Source: an uncultured Alphaproteobacteria bacterium (GTDB taxonomy: Bacteria; Pseudomonadota; Alphaproteobacteria; CAAHEQ01; UBA3637). From it: a stretch of DNA of 64,000 bases. This document shows positions 5,201 to 56,040 of this stretch, in pieces. The notes below the pieces were generated by a model that worked only from the letters and a program-made list of their open reading frames with translations, had not been told where the DNA came from and searched no databases. Position 1 is the first letter of the stretch. Each line of letters begins with the position of its first letter. Where the stretch lies: contig CALXUB010000004.1 of the NCBI GenBank assembly GCA_944391565.1, positions 46,180 through 110,179 on the forward strand, in the 5' to 3' direction. A program made the translations under genes and the position numbers.

Positions 5201-8200
5201 TCTGTCGACGGTCGTGTTTTGGGCCGGACTGGCGAAGTTTTAGGCGCATTCCCGTTTGACAATCGAATGATGAATGAAAACAACGTTTGGGTTGGTCGCG
5301 TTCTGCCTGCCGGATTGGCTTTGGACCCGGCCGGCGTATTCCTGGGCTACACACGTTATGACGGAGCTGTGGTTAACAACCGCGGTCAGTTGATTGGAAC
5401 GATTGCATCCGATAACCGTTTGTTGAATGCTGATGGAGAAGTGCTGGGACAATATATACCCTATGGTGCACTGGTCTTTGATCAAAAAGGAAAAGTGCTG
5501 GGTTCTATGGGCTTTGACGGCAAAGTTCGTAATGCCAAAGGCGGCGAGTTAGGCATCTTGATCGGGACGACGGTTGTGGATTCCAACAATAATGTCGTCG
5601 GTCAAGTGATGATCCCGGGCTATGCTTTGAACGAACAAGGTAAAGTGACTGGTCACATCTTCCCGAATGCAACTGTTTTGCGGAAGACAGATACCGAAAC
5701 GCTGCGTGATACCTATACAACCAGCCAGAGAATCGTCAATCGAGATCGACAGATCGTGGGTGGTTCAGTGCCTTTCGGAATTGCATTGGGATTAGATTTG
5801 GCTGTTCCGGGCAATGTCATGCCTGATGGTGGTGTAATGGGCGGAAATGCGCTTGCCGGTCGTGTTTTGACAGATGAGACTATGTATGATTTATTGGGTC
5901 GTGTATGGGGCGGCGTAATTGCTCCGAACGTTATTGTGTCAAAAGACGGTCATGTGGTCGGGTCTACATCAGTTTCTAATGCCATTAACGATATGCAGGG
6001 GACAAAGTTGGGAACGTTAATGCCTTTTGGTTCTGTTTTGACAACACAAAACGAATTGATCGGTTTGACGATGCCGACAGGTGTGGCTGTGAACGATTTT
6101 GCGAAAAAGCTGGGCTTTGTGGCTTCTGACGGTTCTGTTGTCAGTGCCGGCGGTGCTTTAGCCGGTCGGGCGATGCAGGACGGAACGATTGTTCAGCTGT
6201 TGACACGTGATGTTTATGGAACCATGCCGGATATCGGGGATGTTGTAGCCAGTGGTGTTGCAATCGGCTTGAAACCGGAATTATTCGGTCGAGCAATGCC
6301 TTCCGGAGATGTATTGAATAACTCTAATGAAACAATCGCTCAGATTTTGGATGATGCAACTTTGTTAGGCAAAGACGGTAATTTGGCCGGGGCACTGGTT
6401 GCTTGGCGCACGGCGATTGATCATCAAACAAACGTTATCGGAAATACAACCGGAGACGGAAATGTGACAAGCATTCAAGGCAATGTCATCGGTCATTTGG
6501 CTTCGAACGGAGCGGTGAAGGGGTCGCATGCGTTGAAGACACTGGGCGCGGTTATTCCGAATAATTTGGTGACGGATAACCAATGCCGAATTGTTGGTCA
6601 AGTTCGTTATGACGGACGTGTGATTGACGGTAATGGTCAAGTTGTCGCGGTGTTAAATCTGGATGGTTCTGCTGTTTCTCTGCAGGGAGCTAATGTCGGA
6701 GGCGTTGTTCAGAAAGGTTCTGTCATTGCACAAGATGGTACGCTTTTGGGGCGGACACTTCCGGATGCAGATGTCGTGGATTTAAGCGGTGTTTCCATCG
6801 GATGTTCTTTGTTCGACGGAACAGTGATTGACCATGATGGCAATGTCATTGGTCAAGTGTTAAAACGCGGCGTTGTCGTTGACGAAAATGGAAATGTGAT
6901 TGGTCGTGTGCTGCGTAATGGCCAGGTTGTTAACAGCAAAGGCGAAGTCATCGGTAAAGTACTGGGTGATGGCACGGTTGTCGATGAAAATGGCAATGTG
7001 CTGGGTCGTGTGATGGACTTGAAAAAAGAACAGTTGTTGTTTGATGAAAACGGCAAAATTACAGGGACGATGGACAAGGCTGGTCGTGTCTTTGATACAA
7101 AGGGCAAGCATTTGTTCACGGTCGGAGCTGATGGCACGCTGTATGATCCGAACGGCAACATTATCGGTCGAATTGATGATGACGGCAATATTTATGACAA
7201 TGCTGGCAACATCATCGGTAAAGTGGGTAAGGACGGAATTACATCCATGCCGAATTACTTGTATGACGCAGATGGCAATATCATCGGTTATATTAAGGAC
7301 GGTAAGGTCTTTAACACCAATGGCGAACAGATCGGTGAGGTATTGCCGGACGGCACGATTATGATTAACGGTAAACCATGGGGGCGCATTAACCCGGATG
7401 GCAGTATTACATTGTTCGGAGATGAAAGCTGTGAAAACAGTCAATATAACGGAAGCGTCACGGACAATGCCGGTAATCTGTTATACACAATCAAATGTGG
7501 CCGTGTTTATGATGCAAATGGTAATTTAATTGGGACCATTGATGAAAATGGCATTATTCGTGATCTGAACGGGAATATTATCGGAAGGATCGACGAATAC
7601 GGCAATTTATTAGATGCAAACGGCAATATTATCGGCAAGTGGACACCGGATGCAGTTGATTGCCTGCACGCGCAATACAATGGTTCTGTGCATGATAATA
7701 ACGGCAAGCTGCTTTATACCATTAAATGCGGTAAAGTTTATGATGCCAAAGGCAATCTGATCGGAACAATTGACGGCAATGGCGTCATTCGTGATTTGAA
7801 TGGCAATGTGATTGGTCGTATTGATGAGAATGGCAATTTGCTGGATCCGAATGGGAATATCATCGGAAAATGGACTTCAGATGATAATTGTATGAACGCC
7901 CAGTATAACGGAACGGTTCGGGATAATCAGGGACACGTTCTTTATACGATTAAGTGCGGGTATGTTTATGACGCTGAAGGCAACTTGATCGGAACGATCG
8001 ATGCAAATGGTGTTATTCGAGATCTGAACGGAAATGTGATCGGAACTTTACGTGATGGCGTTTTGTATGATCCAAATGGTAATCCGATTGGCAGATGGTC
8101 TCCTGAAAGCGGTGCAACGGGTTTTGTTTCCGGACGTAATTTGTTGGAAGGAACCGGTCTGGGGACTGGCGGATTGAACTTAAGCGGTCGCCGAATTGCC

Positions 8201-12739: not shown

Positions 12740-14245
12740 CTATTCCTTTTTTGTTTTATCAGCCGAAGAAGCGACATTCAATGAGTCAAAGTCGACTTGT
12801 GCTTCTTCTTCCGTTTTTTTATAGTCTTCAATAATTTTTTCCGGCGAGACTTCATAAGGGTCTTCAATCATTTCAAAACCATCCGGTGCCGGTCCGATAA
12901 ATTCTTTTTCCTGACTGGTATCCATTTCTCCCAAAACTTGTCGAGGATCGACTTCGTTTTTTTCTTCAACAGGTTTGAGATTTTCCGGCAGGTCTTCCAA
13001 TTCCTTTTCCAACGCCTTCAGCAAGTTTTGCATTCCTTCACGACCACCCGGCACTTCGGCATCGATGACTTCTTCTAAAAGCTGATTTTCCAACAAATTT
13101 TGGATATTTTCTTTTAATTCGTTCATCAAATCAACGACAAAACCGTAATAGGGATATTCCGTTTTGTCCATGTTGCCCAAACGAACACAGCGGGCGCTGA
13201 TCCAATTCGTAGCCTCTTCGTATAGATTCTTTTGGCGCATGAAATTCGCCATTTCCCAGTTTTTGGTTTTTGGAATTTGCAAATTAGGATCATCCGCCGG
13301 AATTTCAGGTGTCACGGGAACTTCCTTGGGCGCCAGCATTTCCAAAACTTCCGTTTCGGTTGCTGTTTCTTCTTCGATCGCTTCATCAGCCGGTTGTTGT
13401 GTCGGATAAAGGGGCATGTCAGAAACAGCTTCGACCGTTTCTTCTGCAGGAACATCCGGAAGAGCAGGCATTTCAGATAAGTGAATTTCTTCTGCCGTTT
13501 CAACTTCTGTCATCGGATTTGCCGTTTCAAGCGCCTGTGTTGTCACGTCGTCTTGAATGGTCTGTTCAAGGGCTTGTGCTTGTTGGTCCGAAATCGGTTC
13601 TTCTTCCGACATTGTTTCCGGTTGGGTCGGCAAAGAAACCTCTTGCTCGGTCGAAGCAATCATTTCTTCGCTGTTTTCTTGTTCAACAACCATCGTCTCC
13701 GTTGTTGAAGGTAAATTTTCTTCATCGGTGTCAGATAAAGGTTGTTCCGGCTCAAAAACAGCTGTTTGTTGCGTTTCTTGCACAAAAGACTGATTATCTT
13801 TTTGCTCTTCGGCCATTATTTCAGAGACGGCTTCCACCGGAGTCGAAGCATCATTTTGAGTTGCGTCATTCAGCAGGTCTTTCAGTTGGTTGACAACTTT
13901 TGTTCCTTCTTCTCCAAATAATGCCAGCCAATATTCCAATGTCGGAATGCGCTCAATGAGCTGCATGTTATTAACGGACTGTGGTGCGTTAATGTATTGA
14001 TATGCTTCTTCCCAAGCGGCAAGAGCGCCGTAATAATGAATAGCGTGATCTGCCTTTTTCTTCAGCATGTCCTTTGTCGCGTCATCAATACCGGTCATGG
14101 TATCCAACGACGTTTGAATGAAATTCATCCATTCGGGACCTAAGATGTCTTCAGCCTTTTCAACCAAAGGCGTTAATGTTTCCTGATTTTCCTGATAAGC
14201 AATCAAAGCTTCTATCAGCGGCTGCAGCGTTGGATCAATGTTCAT
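12740..14245 (-). CDS. Highly acidic hypothetical cytoplasmic protein (~501 aa)
   Basis: An ATG at 14245 has an AAGGA RBS; the ORF track's upstream TTG start is less likely. The protein is E/D/Q-rich with no TM helix and no Walker motif. Confidence 0.5.
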   Translation of the reverse strand: MNIDPTLQPLIEALIAYQENQETLTPLVEKAEDILGPEWMNFIQTSLDTMTGIDDATKDMLKKKADHAIHYYGALAAWEEAYQYINAPQSVNNMQLIERIPTLEYWLALFGEEGTKVVNQLKDLLNDATQNDASTPVEAVSEIMAEEQKDNQSFVQETQQTAVFEPEQPLSDTDEENLPSTTETMVVEQENSEEMIASTEQEVSLPTQPETMSEEEPISDQQAQALEQTIQDDVTTQALETANPMTEVETAEEIHLSEMPALPDVPAEETVEAVSDMPLYPTQQPADEAIEEETATETEVLEMLAPKEVPVTPEIPADDPNLQIPKTKNWEMANFMRQKNLYEEATNWISARCVRLGNMDKTEYPYYGFVVDLMNELKENIQNLLENQLLEEVIDAEVPGGREGMQNLLKALEKELEDLPENLKPVEEKNEVDPRQVLGEMDTSQEKEFIGPAPDGFEMIEDPYEVSPEKIIEDYKKTEEEAQVDFDSLNVASSADKTKKE

Positions 14246-14305
14246 TCTTTTATCCTTATCCGTCTTTCTTTTCCTCAAGTATAAATAAAGATAGTTAATG
14301 TTTCT

Positions 14306-15148
14306 TTAAAAATCGGTTTTCTCCTCATCAATTAAATGAACAGAAAACTTTGTCGGTTGTTTTGTTCGACGGAATTTGTCCGAAAATTTGTTTTCCTTCT
14401 TGCGAGCGGCTTCTTTTGCTTCGTTTTCCGCAAGCGTTTGAGCCGTTTGTTTTTCAAAAAGTTCGGTTAATTTCTCGCGAATTTCGGCAAGCAGCGGTTC
14501 TTTTTTTAAAGCTTCGGAGACCTGCTGGACTGTTTCCGCCTGAACTTCTTTGGCTTTGGCAATGCCGTTTTTCAGATTTTCATGCATTTTATCGACATCG
14601 GAGTCAATCACAATATACTTTAGAACGTCTAAGACCCGTTCGTTTTGTGCTTCTATGACAGACAAGATATTTTGTTTTTGTGTTTCATGAACGACGGCTT
14701 CTAAAGAAACAATTTGATCTGTCATTTTTTCAGCATCCGATTTGTTGTAAATCACAGCCGGTGTCGTGGTTTCGCGAACGGTTGTTCCGTAAGTTTCCCA
14801 CAACGGCGACATTTCTTCCGCCGCCGGCAGACTGTTTTTGATTTGTAAAGCTTCATTGCCTTCATGCAAAGCTTGACTTTCTTCTTCCTCCGATAGTTCC
14901 TGATGTTTAAGGAAGTTCAAATAATCACGGATTTCTTCGCCGCCCGGTATGTTTTTCAAGGCAATTTGCACTTCCAGTGTCGCATCTTTCAACAGCATGG
15001 CATTATATTGTTGGTTGGCCTCGGGTCCCAACGCAGACAGCTGGCGGTAGATATTGATGAGGCGTTGGGCAGTTGATTCGGCTTCCTCATTTGACGATTG
15101 TTTTCGTTTCAAAAATTCTTTTTTCCAAGAAAGGACGTCCAGTGCCAT
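14306..15148 (-). CDS. Hypothetical coiled-coil protein (280 aa)
   Basis: It has a GAAGGA RBS and is charged and helical with E/K/Q-rich heptad-like composition. I recognise no family. Confidence 0.45.
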   Translation of the reverse strand: MALDVLSWKKEFLKRKQSSNEEAESTAQRLINIYRQLSALGPEANQQYNAMLLKDATLEVQIALKNIPGGEEIRDYLNFLKHQELSEEEESQALHEGNEALQIKNSLPAAEEMSPLWETYGTTVRETTTPAVIYNKSDAEKMTDQIVSLEAVVHETQKQNILSVIEAQNERVLDVLKYIVIDSDVDKMHENLKNGIAKAKEVQAETVQQVSEALKKEPLLAEIREKLTELFEKQTAQTLAENEAKEAARKKENKFSDKFRRTKQPTKFSVHLIDEEKTDF

Positions 15149-47520: not shown

Positions 47521-49422
47521 TCACCGGCACAAAGCTCTTAGGTTTGTGTAATAAAACGATTTATGTCCGACGCGTCCGCTGTCTAAGAACACATAATTTT
47601 TCGCACAAGTGTTGGAGGAAGTTGTATCCGTCCATGCCATTATACTGTCGGAGGTTGTTCCGGTTAAATGAGCACAAGCATTATCCACGCCTTCTTCGCC
47701 ATTCCAGTTCGGGCAAGCTTCGGACATGGTCACTAATCGCATGCCTTTGCTTTCACAAAAGTTTTTAGCACTCCAATAATACATGTAATCATTCTCCGAA
47801 AGCAGGTACTGGCTTCCATCGGCAGCCGTTATGAAAGTTCCTTCGGCTTTCTGACATGTGCCGGTTCCCTCGACTGTCGCGTGACAATAGGAACTCCCCG
47901 GATAGCTGGTATATTGACAATAATAACCTGACTCATCATGACAATCACTTTGAGAGGTACAGGACATATCTTTCAATGGCAAACATTGTTCGTTTTCTTC
48001 ATCCTGCCAATATCCTTCGTCGCAGATAAAGTTCACTCCGTCACACGTCGCATGTGCAGGACAAGGTGTGCAAAATTCACCGGACAAATATTCATCATTT
48101 TGACAGGCATAGCGGCCGTCGTCTAAACAAAGGGCTTGTAAATTGCTGTAAAAATAGGGTTTGTGACCAACTCTGCCACTATCCAAATAAACGTAATATT
48201 TGGCGCAGTCATTAGCGTTTGAGCTTGTCCAACCCATGACGGCTGATGAATAAGCATTCGTCAGGTTCTGACATGCTCCGTCAACGCCTTCCGTTCCTGA
48301 CCAATTCGGACAAGCCTCTTCAATACGAGCCAAAGCCAGTCCTTTGCTCGCGCAGAAATTTTTGGCAGACCAATAGAACATATAGCTGGATTGAGAGAGT
48401 AAATAACGTTGTCCGTTTTTACCAATGACAATCACTCCATTATTTTTTTTACAAATGCCATCTCCTTCTACTTCTTCATTACAATAAGTCGCACCGGGAG
48501 CATAATTTTGCATTTCACAATAAGTATCTGCTTCGCTGCAATCATTTTGTGCAGAACAATAATTTTTATCGACGCAGCCATCTTGTGCGGAGTTTATTTT
48601 GTATCCTTCTAAACAGGTGAAAGTCATCCCATTGCAAGAAGCATGTTCTGGACAAGGAGTACATATGTTATTCTGTAAATATTGTTCGTTTGAACAAATG
48701 CATAATCCATTTGAACAAATGCCAATTTCGTTTTCTTCACGAATGCACGGCTCTCCATCGGATAAGGCAACACAAACAGCACATCCCTTTGAATCTATTT
48801 TTATTTTTTCACATGGTGTGCAAAGTAAATCGATGCTTTGATTATCGCAAATGGTGCATATTCCATTAGAACAGTATCCTTCTTCACCATGTTCTGTGAA
48901 ACAAGCTGTCGCCGAAGGATTAGGAATACATTGCCCATTGCTGCAAGTTTCACAAGAAGTGCACTCTTCGCTGCATTCTTCCGATGGAATTTCATCATTG
49001 TTGAAAGAAAAAATAAAATGAAGAGTACTTTCTGTTGGACAATTTGTTTCATCGGGTTGATTGTTAATAAAAATTTCTTGGATAGGAGTATGTTTATTAT
49101 TTAATAAACGCTGACATATTCTTTTATCAATTTGTTCAACTTGAACATCAAATCCGTCTTCTAAAATTAGAGTTATAATATTTTTCCCAGATTCTGGAAG
49201 ATAAAGAGGCTTTATAATATCTCCTTGATTTAATCCTTCTCGAGTGACAAGACGTTCAGCCTGTATCATTACATCATTTAAAATTTGATTAGATTCGTGC
49301 CAAGTTAAGGCCATTCTAATGCCTGCAATACTTCCTAAGCTAAGGAGAGCTGCAATCAACAAAACAGACAACAATTCAATCATTGAGCGTCCATAATTTT
49401 GGATATCAGAAAGTCTTTTCAT
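47521..49422 (-). CDS. Type IV pilin/pseudopilin-like protein with large Cys-rich extracellular region containing two EGF-like + C-type-lectin-like repeats (633 aa)
   Basis: The N-terminus is a class III (prepilin) signal, MKRLSDIQNYG|RSMIELLSVLLIAALLSLGSIAGI, with Glu at +5. There are ~60 Cys. Two ~200-aa internal repeats each contain CTPCP[EA]HA[ST]C[ND]G..F.C.EGY and YYWSAKNFC[AE]SKG[LM].L......ACPNW.G.EGVD.AC...W.GL-like lectin elements and SGRVGHK.[FY]YY[ST]NL[QR]ALC. Confidence 0.55.
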   Translation of the reverse strand: MKRLSDIQNYGRSMIELLSVLLIAALLSLGSIAGIRMALTWHESNQILNDVMIQAERLVTREGLNQGDIIKPLYLPESGKNIITLILEDGFDVQVEQIDKRICQRLLNNKHTPIQEIFINNQPDETNCPTESTLHFIFSFNNDEIPSEECSEECTSCETCSNGQCIPNPSATACFTEHGEEGYCSNGICTICDNQSIDLLCTPCEKIKIDSKGCAVCVALSDGEPCIREENEIGICSNGLCICSNEQYLQNNICTPCPEHASCNGMTFTCLEGYKINSAQDGCVDKNYCSAQNDCSEADTYCEMQNYAPGATYCNEEVEGDGICKKNNGVIVIGKNGQRYLLSQSSYMFYWSAKNFCASKGLALARIEEACPNWSGTEGVDGACQNLTNAYSSAVMGWTSSNANDCAKYYVYLDSGRVGHKPYFYSNLQALCLDDGRYACQNDEYLSGEFCTPCPAHATCDGVNFICDEGYWQDEENEQCLPLKDMSCTSQSDCHDESGYYCQYTSYPGSSYCHATVEGTGTCQKAEGTFITAADGSQYLLSENDYMYYWSAKNFCESKGMRLVTMSEACPNWNGEEGVDNACAHLTGTTSDSIMAWTDTTSSNTCAKNYVFLDSGRVGHKSFYYTNLRALCR

Positions 49423-49605
49423 AAATACCTCCTTTTAAAAGATAAAGGAGATTAGAGTTTTGTCAATAAAGTTCATTAAGAGAAGCTATTTTAAAAAAAA
49501 TGTATCATTTAAACATTCAAGTTTGAGTTGATATATTTTATTTGTTTTTTATTAAAATGCATGCTAAAATATACACCTATTTATTTTAAAGAAAGGAATT
49601 AAAAA

Positions 49606-49737
49606 ATGAAAAAATTAGCTTTAACAGCTTGTGGTGGTAGTCGTGGGTATGTTGGAAATCAAAAAGTTTGTGAGAATGATTATTTTCTAGGAGTTATTTC
49701 AATTTCTGAATTATTCTCTCCTTGCACAAAAAAGTAA
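49606..49737 (+). CDS. Small predicted lipopeptide (43 aa)
   Basis: It has an AAAGGA RBS. It encodes MKKLALTACGGSRGYVGNQKVCENDYFLGVISISELFSPCTKK with lipobox LTAC. A hairpin terminator follows. It is below the ORF-track size cutoff. Confidence 0.35.
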   Translation: MKKLALTACGGSRGYVGNQKVCENDYFLGVISISELFSPCTKK

Positions 49738-49750
49738 ATTTGAATAATAC

Positions 49751-49788
49751 GAAAAGACCTTTGCTAAAGTGCAAAGGTCTTTTTTTAT
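49751..49788 (+). terminator. Rho-independent terminator
   Basis: The hairpin AAAGACCTTTGCtaaagtGCAAAGGTCTTT is followed by TTTTTTT. Confidence 0.7.
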
Positions 49789-49913
49789 GTTTTAAAAGTG
49801 TTAATGATATGTAAGTATGTATTTGTGATACATAAAAATAAAAAAACTTTATCTTTATGTACGTCAATGTTGTGGAATAGTATTTAAAGAGACAAAGAAA
49901 ATGAACTTTATAT

Positions 49914-49966
49914 TGGTGGGCGTAAGAGGACTCGAACCTCTGACCTTTACGATGTCAACGTAAACA
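49914..49966 (-). tRNA. 3' fragment (~53 nt: anticodon arm to CCA) of tRNA-Val(GAC); likely prophage att-site remnant, not an intact gene
   Basis: The minus-strand reading is TTTACG-TTGACAT-CGTAAA (anticodon loop with U33 and GAC) / AGGTC / AGAGG-TTCGAGT-CCTCT (T arm) / TACGCCC-A-CCA. No matching 5' acceptor or D arm lies upstream. An integrase gene lies ~550 bp away. Confidence 0.6.
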
Positions 49967-50103
49967 GTATAATGAAAATAATTTTTATTTTCAACGTGTT
50001 ATTTTTTTAAAAAATAAAATTGCCCAATTTTTGCCCAATTAAAAAATAAATTTACTTTTTCTTATAAAAAATTATAATATCGTTCTCAAAAGAAGGAGAC
50101 TTT

Positions 50104-50499
50104 ATGAAGTATTGTTTTTTATTATTATTCTTGTTTCTGATCGGTTGCTTTAATGGAGAATCTCTTGAGGAAATTAATAAAGCATCTTCTAAAATAGTTT
50201 TAAATGAGAAATGTGAAAATGTTTCTGCTTTTGAAGTTTTTCAAGTCCTTGATAAATTTGTATTAGCCCATACTTGTGATAGCAATGATTATAAATTTTG
50301 TTCGGGGTTAGTTGTTTACATTATGAAAGAGAAAAATAAAATTTATTATAATGATCAAATTATTCATGTTCCTGACGGTAAATGTCCCGAATATTATGAC
50401 ACGTTTACATATGAAAGTTCTTTAGGGTCAAGAACTGTTCCGAAAGTGAAATGGTCACATAAAGAGATTCATAATTCCGCCAAGAAACAAGAGAAGTGA
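50104..50499 (+). CDS. Small lipoprotein (131 aa), AT-rich, likely prophage cargo
   Basis: The lipobox is LFLIGCFNG. The gene has low GC content and lies between attL and int. Confidence 0.45.
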   Translation: MKYCFLLLFLFLIGCFNGESLEEINKASSKIVLNEKCENVSAFEVFQVLDKFVLAHTCDSNDYKFCSGLVVYIMKEKNKIYYNDQIIHVPDGKCPEYYDTFTYESSLGSRTVPKVKWSHKEIHNSAKKQEK

Positions 50500-50501
50500 A
50501 A

Positions 50502-51602
50502 TCAGATTTTATTAAGTGCAGTTGCTTCATGGTGCTTCGAAAAGGTGGCATAGCGTTGAACCATTTTTATTGATTTCCAACCTCCTAATTTTTGAAGAGT
50601 TAAAAGGTCCATGCCGGACATAATACATCTAGATGCCCAGTCATGTCGCCAGTCGTGAATGCGCATTTTTTTCCCATTGCTGTTTCGAGGGATAAAACCG
50701 TGTCTTTGTTCAAAACGTTTTAATGCTAATGTGTGTGCTTTATGAAGTGGTGTCCCACCTCCTCTTATTCGAGTGTCGCAATATGGAACATTTTTGATTG
50801 TTAAAAAAACTTTTCCAGATTTCGGTTTGTTTGCTCTGATCCATGTTCTTGCTAAAATCCAAAAAGTTTTCCGGTGCATTGGAACGTTTCGTGTTTCTCC
50901 GTTCTTACTTTTTACAATATCAATTGTTCGGTTCGGAAAGTAAACATCAGCCCAATCTAGTTGGAGCAATTCTTGTTCACGAAAGCCTTGAACAGCGTAA
51001 ATTTCAAACATAGGCCGAGCGTGCGTAGAGTAACAATCTAATAAAAGAGTGCGAGTTTCATTATCTAGGTGAAAAACGACATTGTCATTTCCTCTTTTCC
51101 TCGGTAATTTTTGAAATTCAAATCCAAGATCATTTGCCGCACATCTGATTATTGCCATTATCGTGTCCCTATAACGATTTGTTGTTGTTGGTGCCAAGTG
51201 TTGTTTTTCCCTTAGAAAATCTCTCCAGGCTGTTTTAATGTCTGATATGCGTATGTTTGAAAAATAAGGACGTAATATCTCGATTTTATTAATTTCACCG
51301 GCTTTTAACTGGTTATTAATAAGATATATTTCTAAACATTGATCAAATGTTATATCTTGTGGGTGGGACGTATGTCCTGTTTTAATATTGGTCCTAATTT
51401 TTTCTTCTAACTCGTGAGCATATTCCGCTGCTTCTGCTTTTGTAGTAAATCCTGTACTTTGCTCCGGGACGTTAATTGACTGTGAACCAACTTTAATCGT
51501 TCCACGTACCGAGTAGATGCCTTTCTTTCCTCTTTGTCGGATATGTAACACTTTTCTTTTTCCTTTTGTAATGTTTCGAAAATTATTTCCTTGAAGTACC
51601 AC
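50502..51602 (-). CDS. int: Tyrosine-type site-specific integrase
   Basis: The C-terminal catalytic region HDWRHDWASRCIMSGMDLLTLQKLGGWKSIKMVQRYATFS contains the H-x-x-R and terminal Y of the RHRY family. It lies adjacent to the tRNA fragment. Confidence 0.85.
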   Translation of the reverse strand: MVLQGNNFRNITKGKRKVLHIRQRGKKGIYSVRGTIKVGSQSINVPEQSTGFTTKAEAAEYAHELEEKIRTNIKTGHTSHPQDITFDQCLEIYLINNQLKAGEINKIEILRPYFSNIRISDIKTAWRDFLREKQHLAPTTTNRYRDTIMAIIRCAANDLGFEFQKLPRKRGNDNVVFHLDNETRTLLLDCYSTHARPMFEIYAVQGFREQELLQLDWADVYFPNRTIDIVKSKNGETRNVPMHRKTFWILARTWIRANKPKSGKVFLTIKNVPYCDTRIRGGGTPLHKAHTLALKRFEQRHGFIPRNSNGKKMRIHDWRHDWASRCIMSGMDLLTLQKLGGWKSIKMVQRYATFSKHHEATALNKI

Positions 51603-51736
51603 CCGCGACGCATGGGCTTTATCCCTCGTTTATTAAGCCAATTTCTTGTATTTCGAATGGGATTTAATGTCGTATCGTATTTGAGTAAAAAGGCTATCTC
51701 ATTTAAGGATATGGATTGGACTTCTTCAAATTTCAT
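51407..51736 (-). CDS. Possible excisionase/AlpA-like small DNA-binding protein (overlaps int 5' end in another frame)
   Basis: The sequence MKFEEVQSISLNEIAFLLKYDTTLNPIRNTRNWLNKRGIKP has a helix-turn-helix flavour. It overlaps the int start by ~195 nt, so either this ORF or the integrase N-terminus is overcalled. Confidence 0.25.
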   Translation of the reverse strand: MKFEEVQSISLNEIAFLLKYDTTLNPIRNTRNWLNKRGIKPMRRGWYFKEIIFETLQKEKEKCYISDKEERKASTRYVERLKLVHSQLTSRSKVQDLLQKQKQRNMLTS

Positions 51737-52062
51737 TCTTCCTCCTTTACTAGGCATATTTCTTCGATCTCTTCATCTTCAATTTCTGTATCTCCTCGAA
51801 AATCTTCTTCCCAATCCTTATCCGCCTTGTAAGCCTTTTTCTCCGCCTCATCTTCAGAAAAAGCCATAATTTCTAATTCGCATTTAACGGAAACGGATTG
51901 TATTGCATTCATTTTCACCAGATATTTCTTAGGTTTTCCTTCTCGTCTGAAGTTTTCATCGACATGTTTTCGAACAAAATCGGTAAACTTACCATATCCG
52001 GCATCTTTGAAATCATTCAAATCAATTTTTAGGCCATTTTTCGTTGTAATTATCATCTCCAA
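51733..52062 (-). CDS. Acidic hypothetical phage protein (109 aa)
   Basis: It is an ORF of E/D-rich composition lying in the early left operon. Confidence 0.35.
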   Translation of the reverse strand: MEMIITTKNGLKIDLNDFKDAGYGKFTDFVRKHVDENFRREGKPKKYLVKMNAIQSVSVKCELEIMAFSEDEAEKKAYKADKDWEEDFRGDTEIEDEEIEEICLVKEEE

Positions 52063-52283
52063 TCCCCAATTTTGTTAGGAAGGGACAGGTTTTGAGTTTT
52101 TTGTCTTTTCCCGCCGCCTTCCGATGCTTTATTGCACTTTCCCTTCTAAAAAGGCAAAAGCAGACTCTTTCGCCGCAAGAGGAAGGGATTTGTCATTTAT
52201 AACTTTTAAAGCTTCGATAATGCTTTGGGAGTTTGGACATCCGTTGATTTTGACGATTATCAAACTTTCTTTTAAAATATCAG

Positions 52284-52529
52284 TCATTTTCCCTCCGGTT
52301 CAAATTTATTAAAGACGTATTTTGTTTCAATTTTAACGGATTTACCGCATTTGCAATGAAATCCCCATCCGCCTTCTACTTTTGTGGTGATGCCATTTTT
52401 TACGTATGAGACGTCTAATTGATAAAAAAGATCTTTAGTCGACACTCGGTTAGCTCGTCCACAGTATGGGCATAGGCCGTCAAAATTAACGGAAAGCCAT
52501 AACTTTTCCTGAAGCGATAAATTATTCAT
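52284..52529 (-). CDS. Zinc-ribbon protein (81 aa)
   Basis: The CPYCGR ... CKCGKS pair forms a C4 zinc ribbon. Confidence 0.4.
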   Translation of the reverse strand: MNNLSLQEKLWLSVNFDGLCPYCGRANRVSTKDLFYQLDVSYVKNGITTKVEGGWGFHCKCGKSVKIETKYVFNKFEPEGK

Positions 52530-52532
52530 GAT

Positions 52533-52793
52533 TTATACCCTTTCACCATAAAACCATTCTTCCCAAGCTTCAACGATTTCAGGGAAAGCTATTTTCAAGC
52601 GGTGGCGATTGTTTGAATCGGCTTTGCCGATCAGGTCAATGAGTTTACACATAAAAGAGGTGCTTTCTCCTCTTTGCCATTCTTTTATCTGTTCCCGTGC
52701 TTCTTCTTTTGTCATAATGTCTCCTTGTTTCTCTCTTTTTCTTTTAAACTCGCTGGTATTCTTTGACCGATTGAAACATGATCCAACTGGCAA
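52533..52793 (-). CDS. Hypothetical phage protein (86 aa)
   Basis: It is an ORF adjacent to the zinc-ribbon gene in the same operon. Confidence 0.35.
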   Translation of the reverse strand: MPVGSCFNRSKNTSEFKRKREKQGDIMTKEEAREQIKEWQRGESTSFMCKLIDLIGKADSNNRHRLKIAFPEIVEAWEEWFYGERV

Positions 52794-53056
52794 CGGCCTT
52801 TACTCTGTGAGAGAATACCTTTCGTGTGCGAGCAACACGGTTTACTTTTGAAAAAGATAGCCAGTGGAAAGCTAATTCATCGCAACCCTTCGCCATACCG
52901 GCCGGTTTTATATTCCCAAGCATCAACGCGGGATTGGCCTTTTTCGCACGCAACTAAAAGCAACATGACGCTTAACAAAACAATGAAAATGTAAATTGCG
53001 GTGTCTTTGATCATTATTGTTTTTCCTTTTCAAAAGTTTTTTAATCACAAAAGAAT

Positions 53057-53073
53057 TATACGATAATCGTATA
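53057..53073. promoter_or_regulatory. 17-bp palindromic operator TATACGATAATCGTATA (copy 1)
   Basis: This is a perfect inverted repeat. A second copy lies 36 bp downstream and a third lies in the cI/cro intergenic region. Confidence 0.6.
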
Positions 53074-53092
53074 AAATAAGTCAATAGAAAAA

Positions 53093-53109
53093 TATACAAT
53101 AATCGTATA
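53093..53109. promoter_or_regulatory. Operator copy 2, TATACAATAATCGTATA (1 mismatch)
   Basis: It shows the same palindrome family. It is followed by the same AAAATxA flank as copy 1. Confidence 0.55.
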
Positions 53110-53289
53110 AAATGACTAAAAAGGCTCAAAAGCGTATCTTTTTCGAAACAGAATTGCGGAAAGAAGTGGGGGCGAAAAATAACTTTTCGAACTTAAAAAA
53201 ACGAATCGGAGTTAAAAAAATATGAAAAAAAGGATTGACAATACCGCAATAATGACATACAATTTAAATATACAGAAAGGAAAACGAGA

Positions 53290-53487
53290 ATGCCGATACG
53301 ATATACTTTTGAAGATTTGAGAAAAATGATTGAAAAAGACGGGTGGTTCTTAGTGCGGGTTAAAGGAAGTCATATGCAGTTTAAGCATGCATCGAAAGTT
53401 GGGATTGTGACAATCCCTGCTCATCGGGGGATTGTTCCGCCAGGCACAGCAAACAGTATATTGAGGCAGGCAGGTTTGAAAAAATAG
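53290..53487 (+). CDS. hicA: HicA mRNA interferase toxin
   Basis: It is a 65-aa protein. The KGSHMQFKH motif carries the HicA catalytic His. An RBS AAAGGAAA is present. Confidence 0.85.
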   Translation: MPIRYTFEDLRKMIEKDGWFLVRVKGSHMQFKHASKVGIVTIPAHRGIVPPGTANSILRQAGLKK

Positions 53488-53496
53488 GAGGTTGCT

Positions 53497-53925
53497 ATGT
53501 TAAAATACATTGCTTTATTTGAAACGGATAAGGAAACGGGGCAGGTTGGTGTTGTTTTTCCCGACGTGCCGGGATGTTTTTCCGGCGGTTCGAACTTTGA
53601 TGATGCTTTGCGGAATGCACATGAGGCGTTGGCTTTGCATTTGGATGCATTGGCTGATGAAGGGCAAGCTCTTCCGGTTCCTCGGAGTTTGGAGGATATC
53701 AAAAAAGAGTGGGATGAATGGTCAGATTGGCAAAATTATGATTTTCTCGTCTCGCCGGTCAGCTATATTAAGTTTCGTAAGCCTAAAAAGTATACGCTTT
53801 ATTTGGACAGCGATTTGGTCGCAGTTGTCGATTCTGTTTCCAAAAATCGGTCGGCTTTTTTTAACGAAGCGGCAAGAACGGTGTTAGGGCAGAATGTATC
53901 AAAAACGAGATCGCACACACTATAA
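53497..53925 (+). CDS. hicB: HicB antitoxin (RNase H-like N-domain + RHH-like C-term)
   Basis: It starts MLKYIALFETDKETGQVGVVFPDVPGCFSGGSNFDDALRNAHEALALHL. It has an AGGAGG RBS. It lies immediately downstream of hicA. Confidence 0.8.
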   Translation: MLKYIALFETDKETGQVGVVFPDVPGCFSGGSNFDDALRNAHEALALHLDALADEGQALPVPRSLEDIKKEWDEWSDWQNYDFLVSPVSYIKFRKPKKYTLYLDSDLVAVVDSVSKNRSAFFNEAARTVLGQNVSKTRSHTL

Positions 53926-53933
53926 TCCCAACT

Positions 53934-54569
53934 TTATGTCTTGCTTTTGGGCTTTTTCTTACGCGATGTTTTAACGGCCCGAACGTCTGACGTTCCAAAG
54001 GCATCATAACCTGTGAGAGCGTTCACAAAATCCGGCAACTCAATCAGCTCACCATTGTTGTCATATATGTCTTCAATATTTGTGCTGAGAAATGTTCGGC
54101 TGGCATGGCGCAAAAGGCAGGTTCCTTGAAAGTAGAAACGTGTTTTGCCGTCCTTATAAATTTTGTGGAGAATAACGCTTCTTTCTGTATAAACGCCGGC
54201 CGCATTTCGGTAGTTAAAATTGATTGGCAATCCTTCGGCTGATTCCCAGACAATTACGCCGAAGTCTGGAAGGTCAAAATCATCATCTTCTTCCGGTTGC
54301 TGTTTTAGTTGGGGCGTTGGCTTTGGGGTGAACGGTTCTGCTATTTGGTTGCCTTTTATAATAACCTTAACGAGACTAATAATTAAGCCGATAAACAAGG
54401 AAAGCATGAGATAGGAAAGAAGTGCCATTTTAAGATTTTCTTTAAATCCAGCGGAAGAGGAGATAAGAGAAATGATAAAACCCAGGATGCATGGAAATGA
54501 AGCTCCAATAGCTCCTTGTTTTATGCTTTTTGTCATTATCTGCAACGTGATTTCTTGTTCTTTTTTCAT
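53934..54569 (-). CDS. Membrane-anchored protein with WYL-like C-terminal domain (211 aa)
   Basis: Two N-terminal TM helices are followed by INFNYRNAAGVYTERSVILHKIYKDGKTRFYFQGTCLLRHASRTFLSTNIEDI. This fits the WYL-domain pattern (Y.d..G..t.R.v.P..l....g..Y..g.C..r...R.F....I). Confidence 0.4.
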   Translation of the reverse strand: MKKEQEITLQIMTKSIKQGAIGASFPCILGFIISLISSSAGFKENLKMALLSYLMLSLFIGLIISLVKVIIKGNQIAEPFTPKPTPQLKQQPEEDDDFDLPDFGVIVWESAEGLPINFNYRNAAGVYTERSVILHKIYKDGKTRFYFQGTCLLRHASRTFLSTNIEDIYDNNGELIELPDFVNALTGYDAFGTSDVRAVKTSRKKKPKSKT

Positions 54570-54664
54570 GTTTTCTCCTCTTAGATGTATGTTCTTGGTT
54601 TACAATAAAATGTGTGTAAAAGCAATTGGTTAGTCTAAAAATTCGTAATTAATTTTGATAAAAA

Positions 54665-55000
54665 TCAAGTTTTTTTTCGAAAATAAAGAAGCATACGTTC
54701 GTTGGGAAGTTCTTTTGGTGTTTTTAAAAAATACATAATGTGTTTGTATTTAAACCGTGTTATTCCTTTCGTCGAGCTGAAATTCCAGTGCTTCCTCAAA
54801 TATCCATCGATTTTTTGTTCGGTGACGTGAAGTTCTGCGGCTTTTAGAGATATTTCAGACCGTAAAGATTGATATTCATAATAAGTAATGGGGGTCAGAA
54901 AGTAAAGAATAACAGCCAGGCACAGCATAAAAAACACAAAAACAAGATGATAAAAAAAGGTGTTTTTTTTAAAGAAAAAGAAACGGGCGTATTTTTGCAA
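54665..55000 (-). CDS. Small membrane protein (111 aa)
   Basis: It has a hydrophobic N-terminal helix (FYHLVFVFFMLCLAVILYFL). It lies between the WYL-like gene and the repressor. Confidence 0.35.
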   Translation of the reverse strand: MQKYARFFFFKKNTFFYHLVFVFFMLCLAVILYFLTPITYYEYQSLRSEISLKAAELHVTEQKIDGYLRKHWNFSSTKGITRFKYKHIMYFLKTPKELPNERMLLYFRKKT

Positions 55001-55133
55001 TCCGAGAGATTGACGACAAAACAGGACTCGGATTTTGTAAATTGCACCGGTTGCGGTGGCGTTTCATGCGATTTTATGTCTGGAAGATCATTTACAATTT
55101 TTGCGAATTTTTCTTTATCGATCATTAAACTTC

Positions 55134-55607
55134 TCACTGGTTGACTACAGAATGGCGATATGCAAAATCGGCGATATTATAGACTTTTGCTTTTTTCTCC
55201 GCTGCCGGCGTATCTTTGACGTCATCATATATCATGTAGGCAAGCTCTAATCCTAACTGTGCCGGTAATACTTTATGGCGATCCGCTGCCCAATTGGTCA
55301 ACATCTCAATCAGTTCAAATAATTCATCCTTAGGGATATTGTTATTATTGCTGGATGCGTTGTGAGTTGTCGCATTCCAAAGTTCTTCTTCAGATATTCT
55401 TCCAGAAACAAAATCGAGAAAAGCCAATGTATCGAAATTCAAGAAAGATGCTGCTTTTCGCACATGTTCAATTTTTAAGTTCCAGCAACCTTTCTCTAAA
55501 TCTGATAAACGTGGCTGTCGAACGCCAAGCGCAGCGGCTAATTGCGTTTGCGTTTTTCCAAGCTCTTTTAAACGGCGTTTCAGCCAAAAAACTTTTGTCT
55601 CATTCAT
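55134..55607 (-). CDS. cI-like phage repressor (HTH_XRE N-term)
   Basis: The sequence LKRRLKELGKTQTQLAAALGVRQPRLSDLEKG is an XRE-type HTH. It is divergent from the cro-like gene and the operator palindrome lies in the intergenic region. Confidence 0.75.
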   Translation of the reverse strand: MNETKVFWLKRRLKELGKTQTQLAAALGVRQPRLSDLEKGCWNLKIEHVRKAASFLNFDTLAFLDFVSGRISEEELWNATTHNASSNNNNIPKDELFELIEMLTNWAADRHKVLPAQLGLELAYMIYDDVKDTPAAEKKAKVYNIADFAYRHSVVNQ

Positions 55608-55690
55608 AAATTAAATATATCCGAAAATCGAATATAGCACAAGGGGAAAAAAATATTATACGGTTTATGTAAAAAATATATTGACTCATT

Positions 55691-55707
55691 TATACGATTA
55701 TCGTATA
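55691..55707. promoter_or_regulatory. Operator copy 3 TATACGATTATCGTATA overlapping a TTGACT-17bp-TATAGAT promoter for the cro-like gene
   Basis: TTGACT at 55681-86 and TATAGAT at 55704-10 flank the palindrome. The palindrome sits between them. Confidence 0.6.
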
Positions 55708-55730
55708 GATTGGGAAGGTGGGAGGTTGTA

Positions 55731-55940
55731 ATGTCAATCAATTTTAACAAAATTAAGGAAAAAACAAGCTTTCGGAGGTTCGCATCTGAAATGGGTGTGC
55801 CTTATACGACTTTTTTCACATGGTTAAAGAATAAAAAGGTGCCTGTTTGGAGAATCCATCAATTGGAATGTGCGGCCAAACGATTGAATATTGATTTGTC
55901 CGGTTGTCATGAGGTTTCTTGTGAGGATAGAAAAGGTTGA
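55731..55940 (+). CDS. Cro/YdaS-like small HTH protein
   Basis: It has a GGGAGG RBS. The sequence SFRRFASEMGVPYTTFFTWLKNKKVP has an HTH flavour. It lies in the position of lambda cro. Confidence 0.55.
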   Translation: MSINFNKIKEKTSFRRFASEMGVPYTTFFTWLKNKKVPVWRIHQLECAAKRLNIDLSGCHEVSCEDRKG

Positions 55941-56040
55941 TCAAAGTGCTTTTTTTAATTTTATGTGTGTTCAGTTTCTGCCTTTTTTGCGTATTCGTGC
56001 GCGAAATGGCTGAAGCCTTTTTAAACATTGAGGAGGAAGA

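Follow-up and report, generated by a model that had tools for sequence, protein, structure and literature searches.

We analyzed a 64,000-nucleotide (nt) stretch of DNA from an uncultured Alphaproteobacteria bacterium (assembly GCA_944391565.1, contig CALXUB010000004.1, positions 46,180 to 110,179; hereafter the window, numbered from its first letter), in which a short accessory island encodes a HicAB toxin-antitoxin pair and a protein of 211 amino acids (aa), WYL211, that joins two predicted transmembrane (TM) segments to a WYL domain. In the open reading frame (ORF) table and the Pfam matches of the window, the island was flanked by an integrase and an HTH_3 repressor, as had been noted in an earlier reading of the letters alone (the sequence-only reading). 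Chromosomal genes for an NAD-ligase, a RecN-like SMC ATPase, and a D-Ala-D-Ala carboxypeptidase lay to the left of the integrase, and genes for RusA, a DNA methylase, and a GpA-type large terminase (TerL) lay to the right of the island; thus, the region is the left end of an integrated prophage. The principal genes were as follows:

50502-51602, minus strand: tyrosine integrase (Pfam Phage_integrase, E 8e-23).
53290-53487, plus strand: hicA, type II toxin of 65 aa (Pfam HicA_toxin, PF07927, E 1e-19).
53497-53925, plus strand: hicB, antitoxin of 142 aa (Pfam HicB_lk_antitox, PF15919, E 1.9e-19).
53934-54569, minus strand: wyl211, two-TM and WYL-domain protein of 211 aa.
54665-55137, minus strand: small ORFs between wyl211 and cI in the ORF table.
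54665-54928, minus strand: orf87, basic (pI 9.7), all-helical small protein.
54895-55125, minus strand: orf76, tail-anchored protein of 76 aa with a C-terminal TM segment at residues ~55-76 (Kyte-Doolittle peak 2.76; ratio of nonsynonymous to synonymous substitution rates, dN/dS, 0.20).
55134-55607, minus strand: cI-like repressor of 157 aa (N-terminal HTH_3, Pfam 5.4e-9; PHROG repressor families).
61582-63483, right of the island: GpA-type TerL.

WYL211 was composed, in order, of an N-terminal tail, TM1, an 8-residue loop, TM2, a Pro/Lys/Gln and then acidic linker, a WYL barrel at residues ~105-176, a helix, and a basic tail. The two hydrophobic segments (residues ~20-40 and ~49-71) reached peaks of 1.93 and 2.49 on the Kyte-Doolittle (KD) scale, for which a window of 19 residues was used and KD >= 1.6 was taken as TM-grade, and their flanks were Lys-rich. 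The gene was under purifying selection, with a dN/dS of 0.23 relative to the copy in a sister prophage (locus L001). The sequence-only reading had described a membrane-anchored, WYL-like protein, and both halves of that description were borne out. Against the Pfam WYL model (PF13280), the window protein alone scored 14.5 bits (E 0.037), which is below the cut-off of 21.8; however, a family member (P0029) scored 23.3 bits, homologues bore precomputed Pfam WYL matches, and 44 of 51 remote relatives matched Pfam WYL at E <= 0.01 (best 1.9e-14). Two WYL-containing PADLOC profiles matched residues 109-170 of WYL211 at 6.3e-6 and 3.2e-4, and family profiles matched solved WYL proteins with the signature motifs in register, namely 8bns/8bnv, PafBC (2.5e-9), PafB, PafC, and CapW. 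The AlphaFold (AF2) model had an overall predicted local distance difference test (pLDDT) value of 71, rising to ~90 over residues 105-190, and contained five strands at residues 105-169 (pLDDT ~90) arranged as an Sm/SH3-like barrel; its top 19 Foldseek matches in the PDB were all WYL proteins (BrxR, PafBC, CapW, and DriD; probability 0.97-1.00). Of the WYL signature, Y120, R130, R144, F145, Y146, C151, R154, R158, T159, and F160 were invariant in 26 sequences; the RWYL-like stretch of WYL211 reads R144-F-Y-F, and the final 'dRI' Arg was Asn164 in WYL211. The agreement of the homologue matches, the PADLOC profiles, the PDB profile matches, and the structural comparison indicated that the C-terminal domain of WYL211 is a genuine WYL domain, although the window protein by itself falls short of the Pfam threshold.

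The best structural and profile matches of WYL211 were winged helix-turn-helix (wHTH)-WYL-WCX factors (CapW, BrxR, PafBC, and DriD), with which it shares the barrel fold and the motifs Y...TER...RWYL-like...C..R..RTF. In contrast to these factors, WYL211 has neither a helix-turn-helix (HTH) nor a WCX domain. No HTH match was found at E <= 1, and residues 1-73 were modeled by AF2 as two long helices coinciding with the hydrophobic segments; no WCX dimerization domain was present, and in the AF2 model the barrel was followed by just one short helix (178-186), after which the basic tail was disordered. The two-helix membrane hairpin of WYL211 stands where known WYL regulators have their DNA-binding HTH, the hairpin and the acidic linker together replacing the DNA-binding half, and because of this substitution WYL211 cannot act as a transcription factor. 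The short periplasmic loop and the Lys-rich flanks suggest that both termini, and hence the WYL domain, are cytoplasmic. Two further motifs that flank the barrel were invariant in the family, D97-F-D-L-x-G-x-G104 at the end of the linker and G187-Y-x-A-F-G192, and neither has a counterpart in CapW, BrxR, PafBC, or DriD. Mimicry of the tail of single-stranded DNA-binding protein (SSB) or of the FtsZ C-terminal peptide by the window sequence 'DDDFDLPGFG' was considered and dropped, as the Pro and the second Phe are not conserved; the family variants include DFDLAGLG, DFDLQGFG, and DFDLKGFG, and D-F-D-L-x-G-x-G alone is invariant. Among the fusions listed in the founding WYL paper (HTH, Cas3, nucleases, helicases, BRCT, and TerB), none involved TM segments, and our literature searches did not turn up a TM-anchored WYL protein. 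The membrane-tethered architecture of WYL211 is thus undescribed and represents a known domain family in a new arrangement.

The WYL211 family comprised 26 clusters in word-indexed searches, and an exhaustive search with hidden Markov models among 1.84 billion proteins returned 9 representatives at E < 1e-30 and 280 at E < 1e-3. The hosts named in the genome records were uncultured gut Alphaproteobacteria, together with one bin labeled Bacteroidaceae. Within the family, the C-terminal WYL half showed a mean pairwise identity of 66% (minimum 49%), whereas the N-terminal membrane half showed a mean of 29% and a median of 23%; no fewer than five mutually unrelated types of hairpin were present, some of which had four TM helices through duplication. 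That the WYL half was conserved while the anchor was swapped suggests that membrane location, and not a particular channel, is the selected property. Of the 145 nearest 50%-identity representatives matching a WYL-only profile, 85 also had hydrophobic segments N-terminal to the domain, and 45 had no TM segment; WYL211 belongs, on this evidence from sequence, to a wider, undescribed set of TM-linked WYL proteins. The closest solved sequence was the C-terminal WYL domain of 8bns/8bnv, named 'AAA ATPase' by its depositors (E 1.5e-3 with profile A3 and 6.6e-8 with A4), which aligned with the family over the motif 'Y..s...k.R.ii...i....GfC..R..eRvF'. In that protein, however, the WYL domain is appended to an ATPase of ~510 aa, whereas in WYL211 it is the sole globular domain and is membrane-tethered.

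Several wHTH-WYL-WCX factors control phage defense and bind single-stranded DNA (ssDNA); CapW binds short ssDNA via conserved Ser and Arg residues of the WYL barrel, and DriD binds ssDNA in an essentially identical way (PMC11662680). Binding of ssDNA is also reported for DriD and PafBC in other papers. By analogy with CapW, DriD, and PafBC, we infer that the WYL211 domain binds a nucleic-acid ligand, the likeliest being short ssDNA. The fold and signature residues that WYL211 has in common with CapW, BrxR, PafBC, and DriD would fit an anti-defense decoy, in which the WYL domain would absorb the ssDNA signal through which host WYL repressors of the CapW/BrxR type switch on CBASS (cyclic oligonucleotide-based antiphage signaling system), BREX (bacteriophage exclusion), and similar systems. 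Such a decoy would shield a prophage that is being induced or a phage in the late stages of infection. CapW-controlled CBASS does block prophage induction via ssDNA sensing (PMC11662680), and many phages encode small stand-alone WYL proteins, which were found as uncharacterized BFVD matches with the same fold (probability 1.0); the nearest relatives without a TM segment point in the same direction. These stand-alone proteins are mostly 60-120 aa long and lack the features particular to the WYL211 family, namely the two-TM hairpin, the linker motif, and the tail. However, a decoy leaves unexplained the membrane anchor that every family member has. In addition, the micromolar ssDNA affinity of CapW would demand a high copy number of a decoy, and we consider this explanation unlikely.

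In the sequence-only reading, the island contained, besides HicAB, a WYL-like protein paired with a small membrane partner, the latter drawn at 54665-55000. The four ORFs named in that reading all exist in the window where they were placed, but the fourth was not confirmed as drawn: at 111 aa, it was too long, since its database homologues have 82 and 87 aa. Comparison of the window with L001 resolved two genes instead. The dN/dS of orf76 was 0.20, with 0.9-1.3 in control frames of the region, and that of the ORF downstream of it (54895-54680) was 0.17, with 0.8-1.3 in control frames. In the overlap (55000-54898), the dN/dS was 0.16 in the orf76 frame and 0.5-0.7 in the frame drawn earlier, and the substitutions were mostly synonymous in the orf76 frame. 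This frame pattern established two real small genes, orf76 and orf87, in place of one 111-aa ORF, and the synonymous pattern indicates that the N-terminal 'TM helix' of the earlier ORF was the C-terminal TM segment of the missed orf76, for which gene calling in L001 and L018 gave a 76-aa product. A single frameshifted gene comprising orf76 and orf87 was not needed as an explanation, as both frames were open and separately constrained in all copies; homopolymer lengths were equal in the window and in L001. The start of orf87 is uncertain (ATG at 54928 in the window; in L001, GTG at the same position or ATG 10 codons later). Its predicted structure had five helices (pLDDT 82), and it contained no 19-residue window with KD >= 1.6. 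The small membrane partner had thus been mis-delimited, with orf87 lacking a clear TM segment and orf76 overlooked.

That orf76 and orf87 are real, are under purifying selection, lie in the same apparent operon as wyl211, and recur together with wyl211 and hicAB as a single block in two different prophages would fit an obligate two- or three-gene membrane system, the idea of the sequence-only reading, in which WYL211 works only with the upstream small membrane protein(s). However, tblastn of orf76, orf87 (as the 111-aa ORF), hicA, hicB, and cI against all fetched loci recovered orf76 and orf87 in L001 only, and blastn of the cI-to-wyl211 segment added L018/L019 and L022, together with the 3' part of orf87 in L021. 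The small genes therefore accompanied wyl211 only in copies of one block that are 89-100% identical (L001, L018, L019, L021, and L022), and no orf76 or orf87 homologue was found beside the family members of ~20 other loci. Moreover, orf76 had no family match and no homologue outside the shared block, orf87 formed just two database clusters, and neither of them, nor wyl211, had a tblastn match in the phage GenBank collection; orf87, in addition, is not a clear membrane protein. A 63-aa protein with an N-terminal TM segment, encoded 3' of the WYL gene in many loci in which that gene adjoins TerL, was not treated as a partner, as its distance is variable, it is absent from L011 and L012, and it has no detectable similarity to orf87. 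Of the two expectations on which the earlier proposal had been hung, a WYL fold was found and a conserved pairing was seen only among near-identical copies of the block. We consider an obligate system improbable and conclude that orf76 and orf87 are most likely local additions of unassigned role, not obligate partners of wyl211.

The identification of hicAB in the sequence-only reading was upheld, both proteins being far above the curated cut-offs. HicA scored 70.8 bits against PF07927 (cut-off 27), covering 57 of 58 model positions, and matched phrog_353 'toxin' at 1.6e-20; HicB scored 70.5 bits against HicB_lk_antitox (cut-off 27) and matched phrog_497 at 1.3e-22, with a weak MazE/ribbon-helix-helix-like match at residues 99-124 (E 0.0059, 16.9 bits, cut-off 65). 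Relative to L001, the dN/dS was 0.05 for hicA and 0.21 for hicB. The promoter of the pair was identical in the L001 copy, and the sequence immediately upstream of it diverged. HicAB is an ordinary type II pair, canonical in gene order, spacing, and promoter. The hicB and wyl211 genes are convergent, with stop codons 8 nt apart (53923-53936) and no terminator-like structure on either strand; thus, the strong hicAB promoter should read antisense through wyl211. hicAB was linked to wyl211 only in this DNA block, and in L011 it lay ~5.4 kb from the WYL gene.

The unit that recurred at 89-100% identity extended from the hicA promoter into cI, of which it included the C-terminal third. In the sister prophage of L001 (features at 7332-7766 and 13411-14919), the same block, 89-98% identical, stood beside a different repressor N-terminus and different operators, with a serine recombinase and not a tyrosine integrase; therefore, the hicAB-to-cI block is a mosaic, accessory module. 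A weak Tad2-like gene was also observed near the shared block in L001 (12855-13283).

The island is enclosed by repressor operators. A 17-bp palindrome, TATACGATAATCGTATA, occurred at 53057-53073, 53093-53109, 55618-55634 (with 3 mismatches), and 55691-55707; these 4 sites (7 strand matches in the palindrome search) had no counterpart elsewhere in the 64 kb, with 0.09 matches expected by chance. The regulatory features of the region, and the cro-like gene, were as follows:

53055-53109, minus strand: left operator/promoter region with operators 53057-53073 and 53093-53109.
53235-53263, plus strand: promoter TTGACA-17-TACAAT (score 11/12) shared by hicA and hicB.
54570-54664, minus strand: spacer upstream of wyl211 with a strong Shine-Dalgarno sequence, AGGAG.
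55618-55709, plus strand: right operator region with operators 55618-55634 and 55691-55707.
55710-55940, plus strand: cro-like small HTH protein with weak HTH/repressor matches.

A leftward sigma-70-like promoter (TTGACT-18-TATAAT, from 53084 to 53055, score 11/12) overlaps the operator at 53057-53073. Before cro, a rightward promoter-like sequence, TTGACT(55681)-17-TATAGA(55709), also overlaps an operator; this site was read by eye and is not listed by the promoter scanner, position 6 of its -10 hexamer being A. The likely start of the cro-like ORF is the ATG at 55731, preceded by GGGAGG. The segment 53057-55707 is thus the immunity region of a lambda-style prophage in a gut alphaproteobacterium, with repressor operators on both sides.

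In this region, cI, orf76, orf87, and wyl211 formed a leftward string of overlapping or closely spaced genes, in which orf76 starts 8 nt past the cI stop, orf87 overlaps orf76, and wyl211 follows after the 95-nt spacer. Given this spacing, and as the minus strand showed no terminator-like site, orf76, orf87, and wyl211 would naturally be co-transcribed with cI in the lysogen. The spacer itself (54570-54664) showed ~3 differences relative to L001, the flanking coding DNA being ~89-92% identical; it had no Rfam match and no sigma-70-like site on the minus strand, and it may be a regulatory element. hicAB and the cI-orf76-orf87-wyl211 string sit between two early promoters, which is the position of cI-rexA-rexB in lambda, and the genomic logic is alike, with accessory genes downstream of cI within the immunity region. 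DNA binding by RexA is reported (PMC11077077). Conceptually, lambda Rex consists of a DNA-binding sensor and a membrane component, whereas WYL211 would unite sensor and membrane part in a single chain, the latter being a poorly conserved hairpin and not a four-TM channel. No homology to RexA or RexB was found for wyl211, orf76, or orf87 in Pfam (E <= 1), PHROG, or PADLOC.

The repressor contained no S24 peptidase domain and no Pfam domain besides HTH_3 at E <= 1, so induction of this prophage by RecA-stimulated self-cleavage is unlikely. A repressor with HTH_3 only that shares an operon with wyl211 raised the question of whether WYL211 is an induction sensor, that is, whether it senses ssDNA from DNA damage and relays this signal to a cI that lacks a self-cleaving peptidase; in Alphaproteobacteria and Actinobacteria, WYL proteins (DriD and PafBC) are reported to be the SOS-independent ssDNA sensors. 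However, most family members lie beside the terminase, ~6 kb from the repressor, L001 has another repressor N-terminus and yet the same wyl gene, and WYL211 has no DNA-binding or protease domain. A role in induction therefore appears very improbable.

On the basis of the conserved WYL half, the exchangeable anchor, and the rex-like position, we tentatively propose that WYL211 is a membrane-tethered trap or sensor for ssDNA or other nucleic acid that gives superinfection exclusion, a reading that is possible rather than probable. Acting at the inner face of the membrane, WYL211 would trap or sense phage nucleic acid, for example, ssDNA exposed while a phage enters or replicates, including the single strand of a cohesive end; because the lineage uses a GpA-type terminase, cohesive ends make an attractive candidate ligand. 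Trapping would block the establishment of the superinfecting phage genome. Alternatively, ligand-driven clustering of the hairpins might damage the membrane, resulting in abortive infection. The hicAB pair would be an independent neighbor of wyl211.

Several observations weigh against superinfection exclusion. As the sequence-only reading had anticipated in naming no system, no match to a named defense system or to a known exclusion or defense effector was obtained in PADLOC, Pfam, NCBIfam, or PHROGs. The topology and the ligand of WYL211 are deduced from sequence features and from analogy, and the second Arg of the CapW RWHVR motif is replaced by Gln148. One 260-aa member (L017, 5524-6306), with 2 TM segments, a long linker, and the same DFDL.G.G-WYL-GY.AYG core, was flanked by ankyrin-repeat and outer-membrane-like genes, and no phage gene was present within 6 kb of it. 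In ~20 other loci of related phages, the WYL gene was not accompanied by the small genes and was located immediately 3' of TerL, before the portal gene; it lay on the late-gene strand, the same as TerL, and in most relatives 93-425 nt after the terminase. The TerL proteins of these loci were 72-93% identical to that of the window. An optional moron would seldom be so uniform: each sampled phage of the lineage apparently had exactly one WYL copy, although this sample is biased, most loci having been found through the WYL protein.

The position next to TerL may therefore reflect a late lytic role in the phage's own cycle, in which WYL211 would serve the phage itself by tethering its DNA (cohesive ends or ssDNA-bearing replication or packaging intermediates) to the membrane, with end protection, organization of replication or packaging, and timing of late events as variants. 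The site just 3' of a GpA-type, cos-cutting TerL, on the same strand, was kept in nearly all sampled relatives, including L027, whose very divergent WYL copy has an insertion inside the WYL domain and still follows TerL. Furthermore, the window phage, which has no WYL gene after TerL, has its copy in the cI operon instead. On the other hand, a location in the repressor operon means expression in the lysogen, when no phage DNA processing happens, and the gap after TerL otherwise holds variable cargo: in the relatives, the terminase-portal gap contained small genes that varied between loci, together with a Rha-like gene and with tRNAs on the opposite strand, and promoter-like sites lay upstream of the WYL gene. 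Such variable, accessory surroundings also fit superinfection exclusion. The TerL survey recovered only L027 and L028 in IMG/VR and L107 (the same contig as L028) in JGI metagenomes as close relatives, and the WYL gene was absent from ~160 phages that are more distant (TerL 47-53% identical). These absences and the chromosomal, non-phage-like copy of L017 also argue against a role in the phage life cycle, which we regard as rather unlikely. In the window, an ORF on the plus strand directly after TerL (63572-64000, running off the end, with a weak phrog_3364 match only) occupies the place at which relatives have the two-TM WYL gene; the site after TerL is a second accessory hotspot with exchanged cargo.

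A class II holin of a lysis cassette would have two TM helices, a charged C-terminus, and a neighboring endolysin. WYL211 has two TM segments and a basic tail, but this candidate was rejected, as a folded domain of ~140 aa is inserted in WYL211 and the neighbors of the TerL-adjacent WYL genes are small ORFs, tRNAs, and a 259-aa protein that is Rha/antirepressor-like and not a lysin. A WYL protein associated with defense-associated reverse transcriptases (PADLOC RTasWYL-YodC) was rejected as well, since the match covered only the terminal WYL part (positions 285-347 of 354) and no reverse transcriptase was found among the neighbors. 2TM-SAVED Cap14 and Pycsar PycTM are effectors composed of TM helices and a ligand-sensor domain. 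TM-CARF effectors such as Cam1 have this architecture in common with WYL211, with TM helices joined to a sensor of small ligands or nucleic acid, but in WYL211 the sensor is a WYL domain, not a CARF, SAVED, or cyclic nucleotide-binding domain, and the TM part is not conserved. The output of Cam1 is reported to be membrane depolarization (PMC10808066). Between 50 and 58 kb of the window, and likewise in the related loci, no cyclase, Cas10, or other signal-producing enzyme was found.

Other features of the prophage setting were recorded. Small leftward ORFs occupied 51733-52793 in the ORF table. A very AT-rich stretch (49000-50500, 26-30% GC) adjoined the integrase gene and contained a lipoprotein-like ORF of 131 aa (50104-50499). 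There was no Rfam match in 52500-56000 and no tRNA gene anywhere in the window, so the prophage attachment site is not a tRNA. In the terminase-portal gap of relatives, a tRNA-Met gene lay on the opposite strand beside a tRNA-like gene of 85-89 nt (L002, 8027-8581; L003, 7814-8123; L008, 9145-9456; L011, 8042-8639; L023, 7413-7699; L027, 3687-3972); the latter, for which ARAGORN reported a two-base 'anticodon', that is, an unusual anticodon loop, was conserved across the lineage.

Until now, WYL domains have been known from transcription factors, in which they form the ligand-sensing half, and as additions to nucleases, helicases, and Cas proteins; their best-documented ligand is ssDNA. A WYL domain with a membrane anchor as its sole partner cannot regulate transcription and would have to act at the membrane. 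More speculatively, and doubtful as it stands, membrane-tethered WYL proteins may be widespread, unrecognized, single-polypeptide nucleic-acid sensors of the inner membrane, of which the WYL211 family would be the first one-gene, Rex-like exclusion factor, capturing or sensing phage ssDNA such as cohesive ends at genome entry. The WYL211 family is small, cheap to synthesize, and easy to test. Should the decoy explanation be true, the family would represent a new type of anti-defense and would suggest a function for many small phage WYL proteins. Should superinfection exclusion be true, WYL211 would represent a new, very compact sensor-effector design in prophage-encoded immunity and would provide a handle on the nucleic-acid species exposed at the membrane during phage entry.

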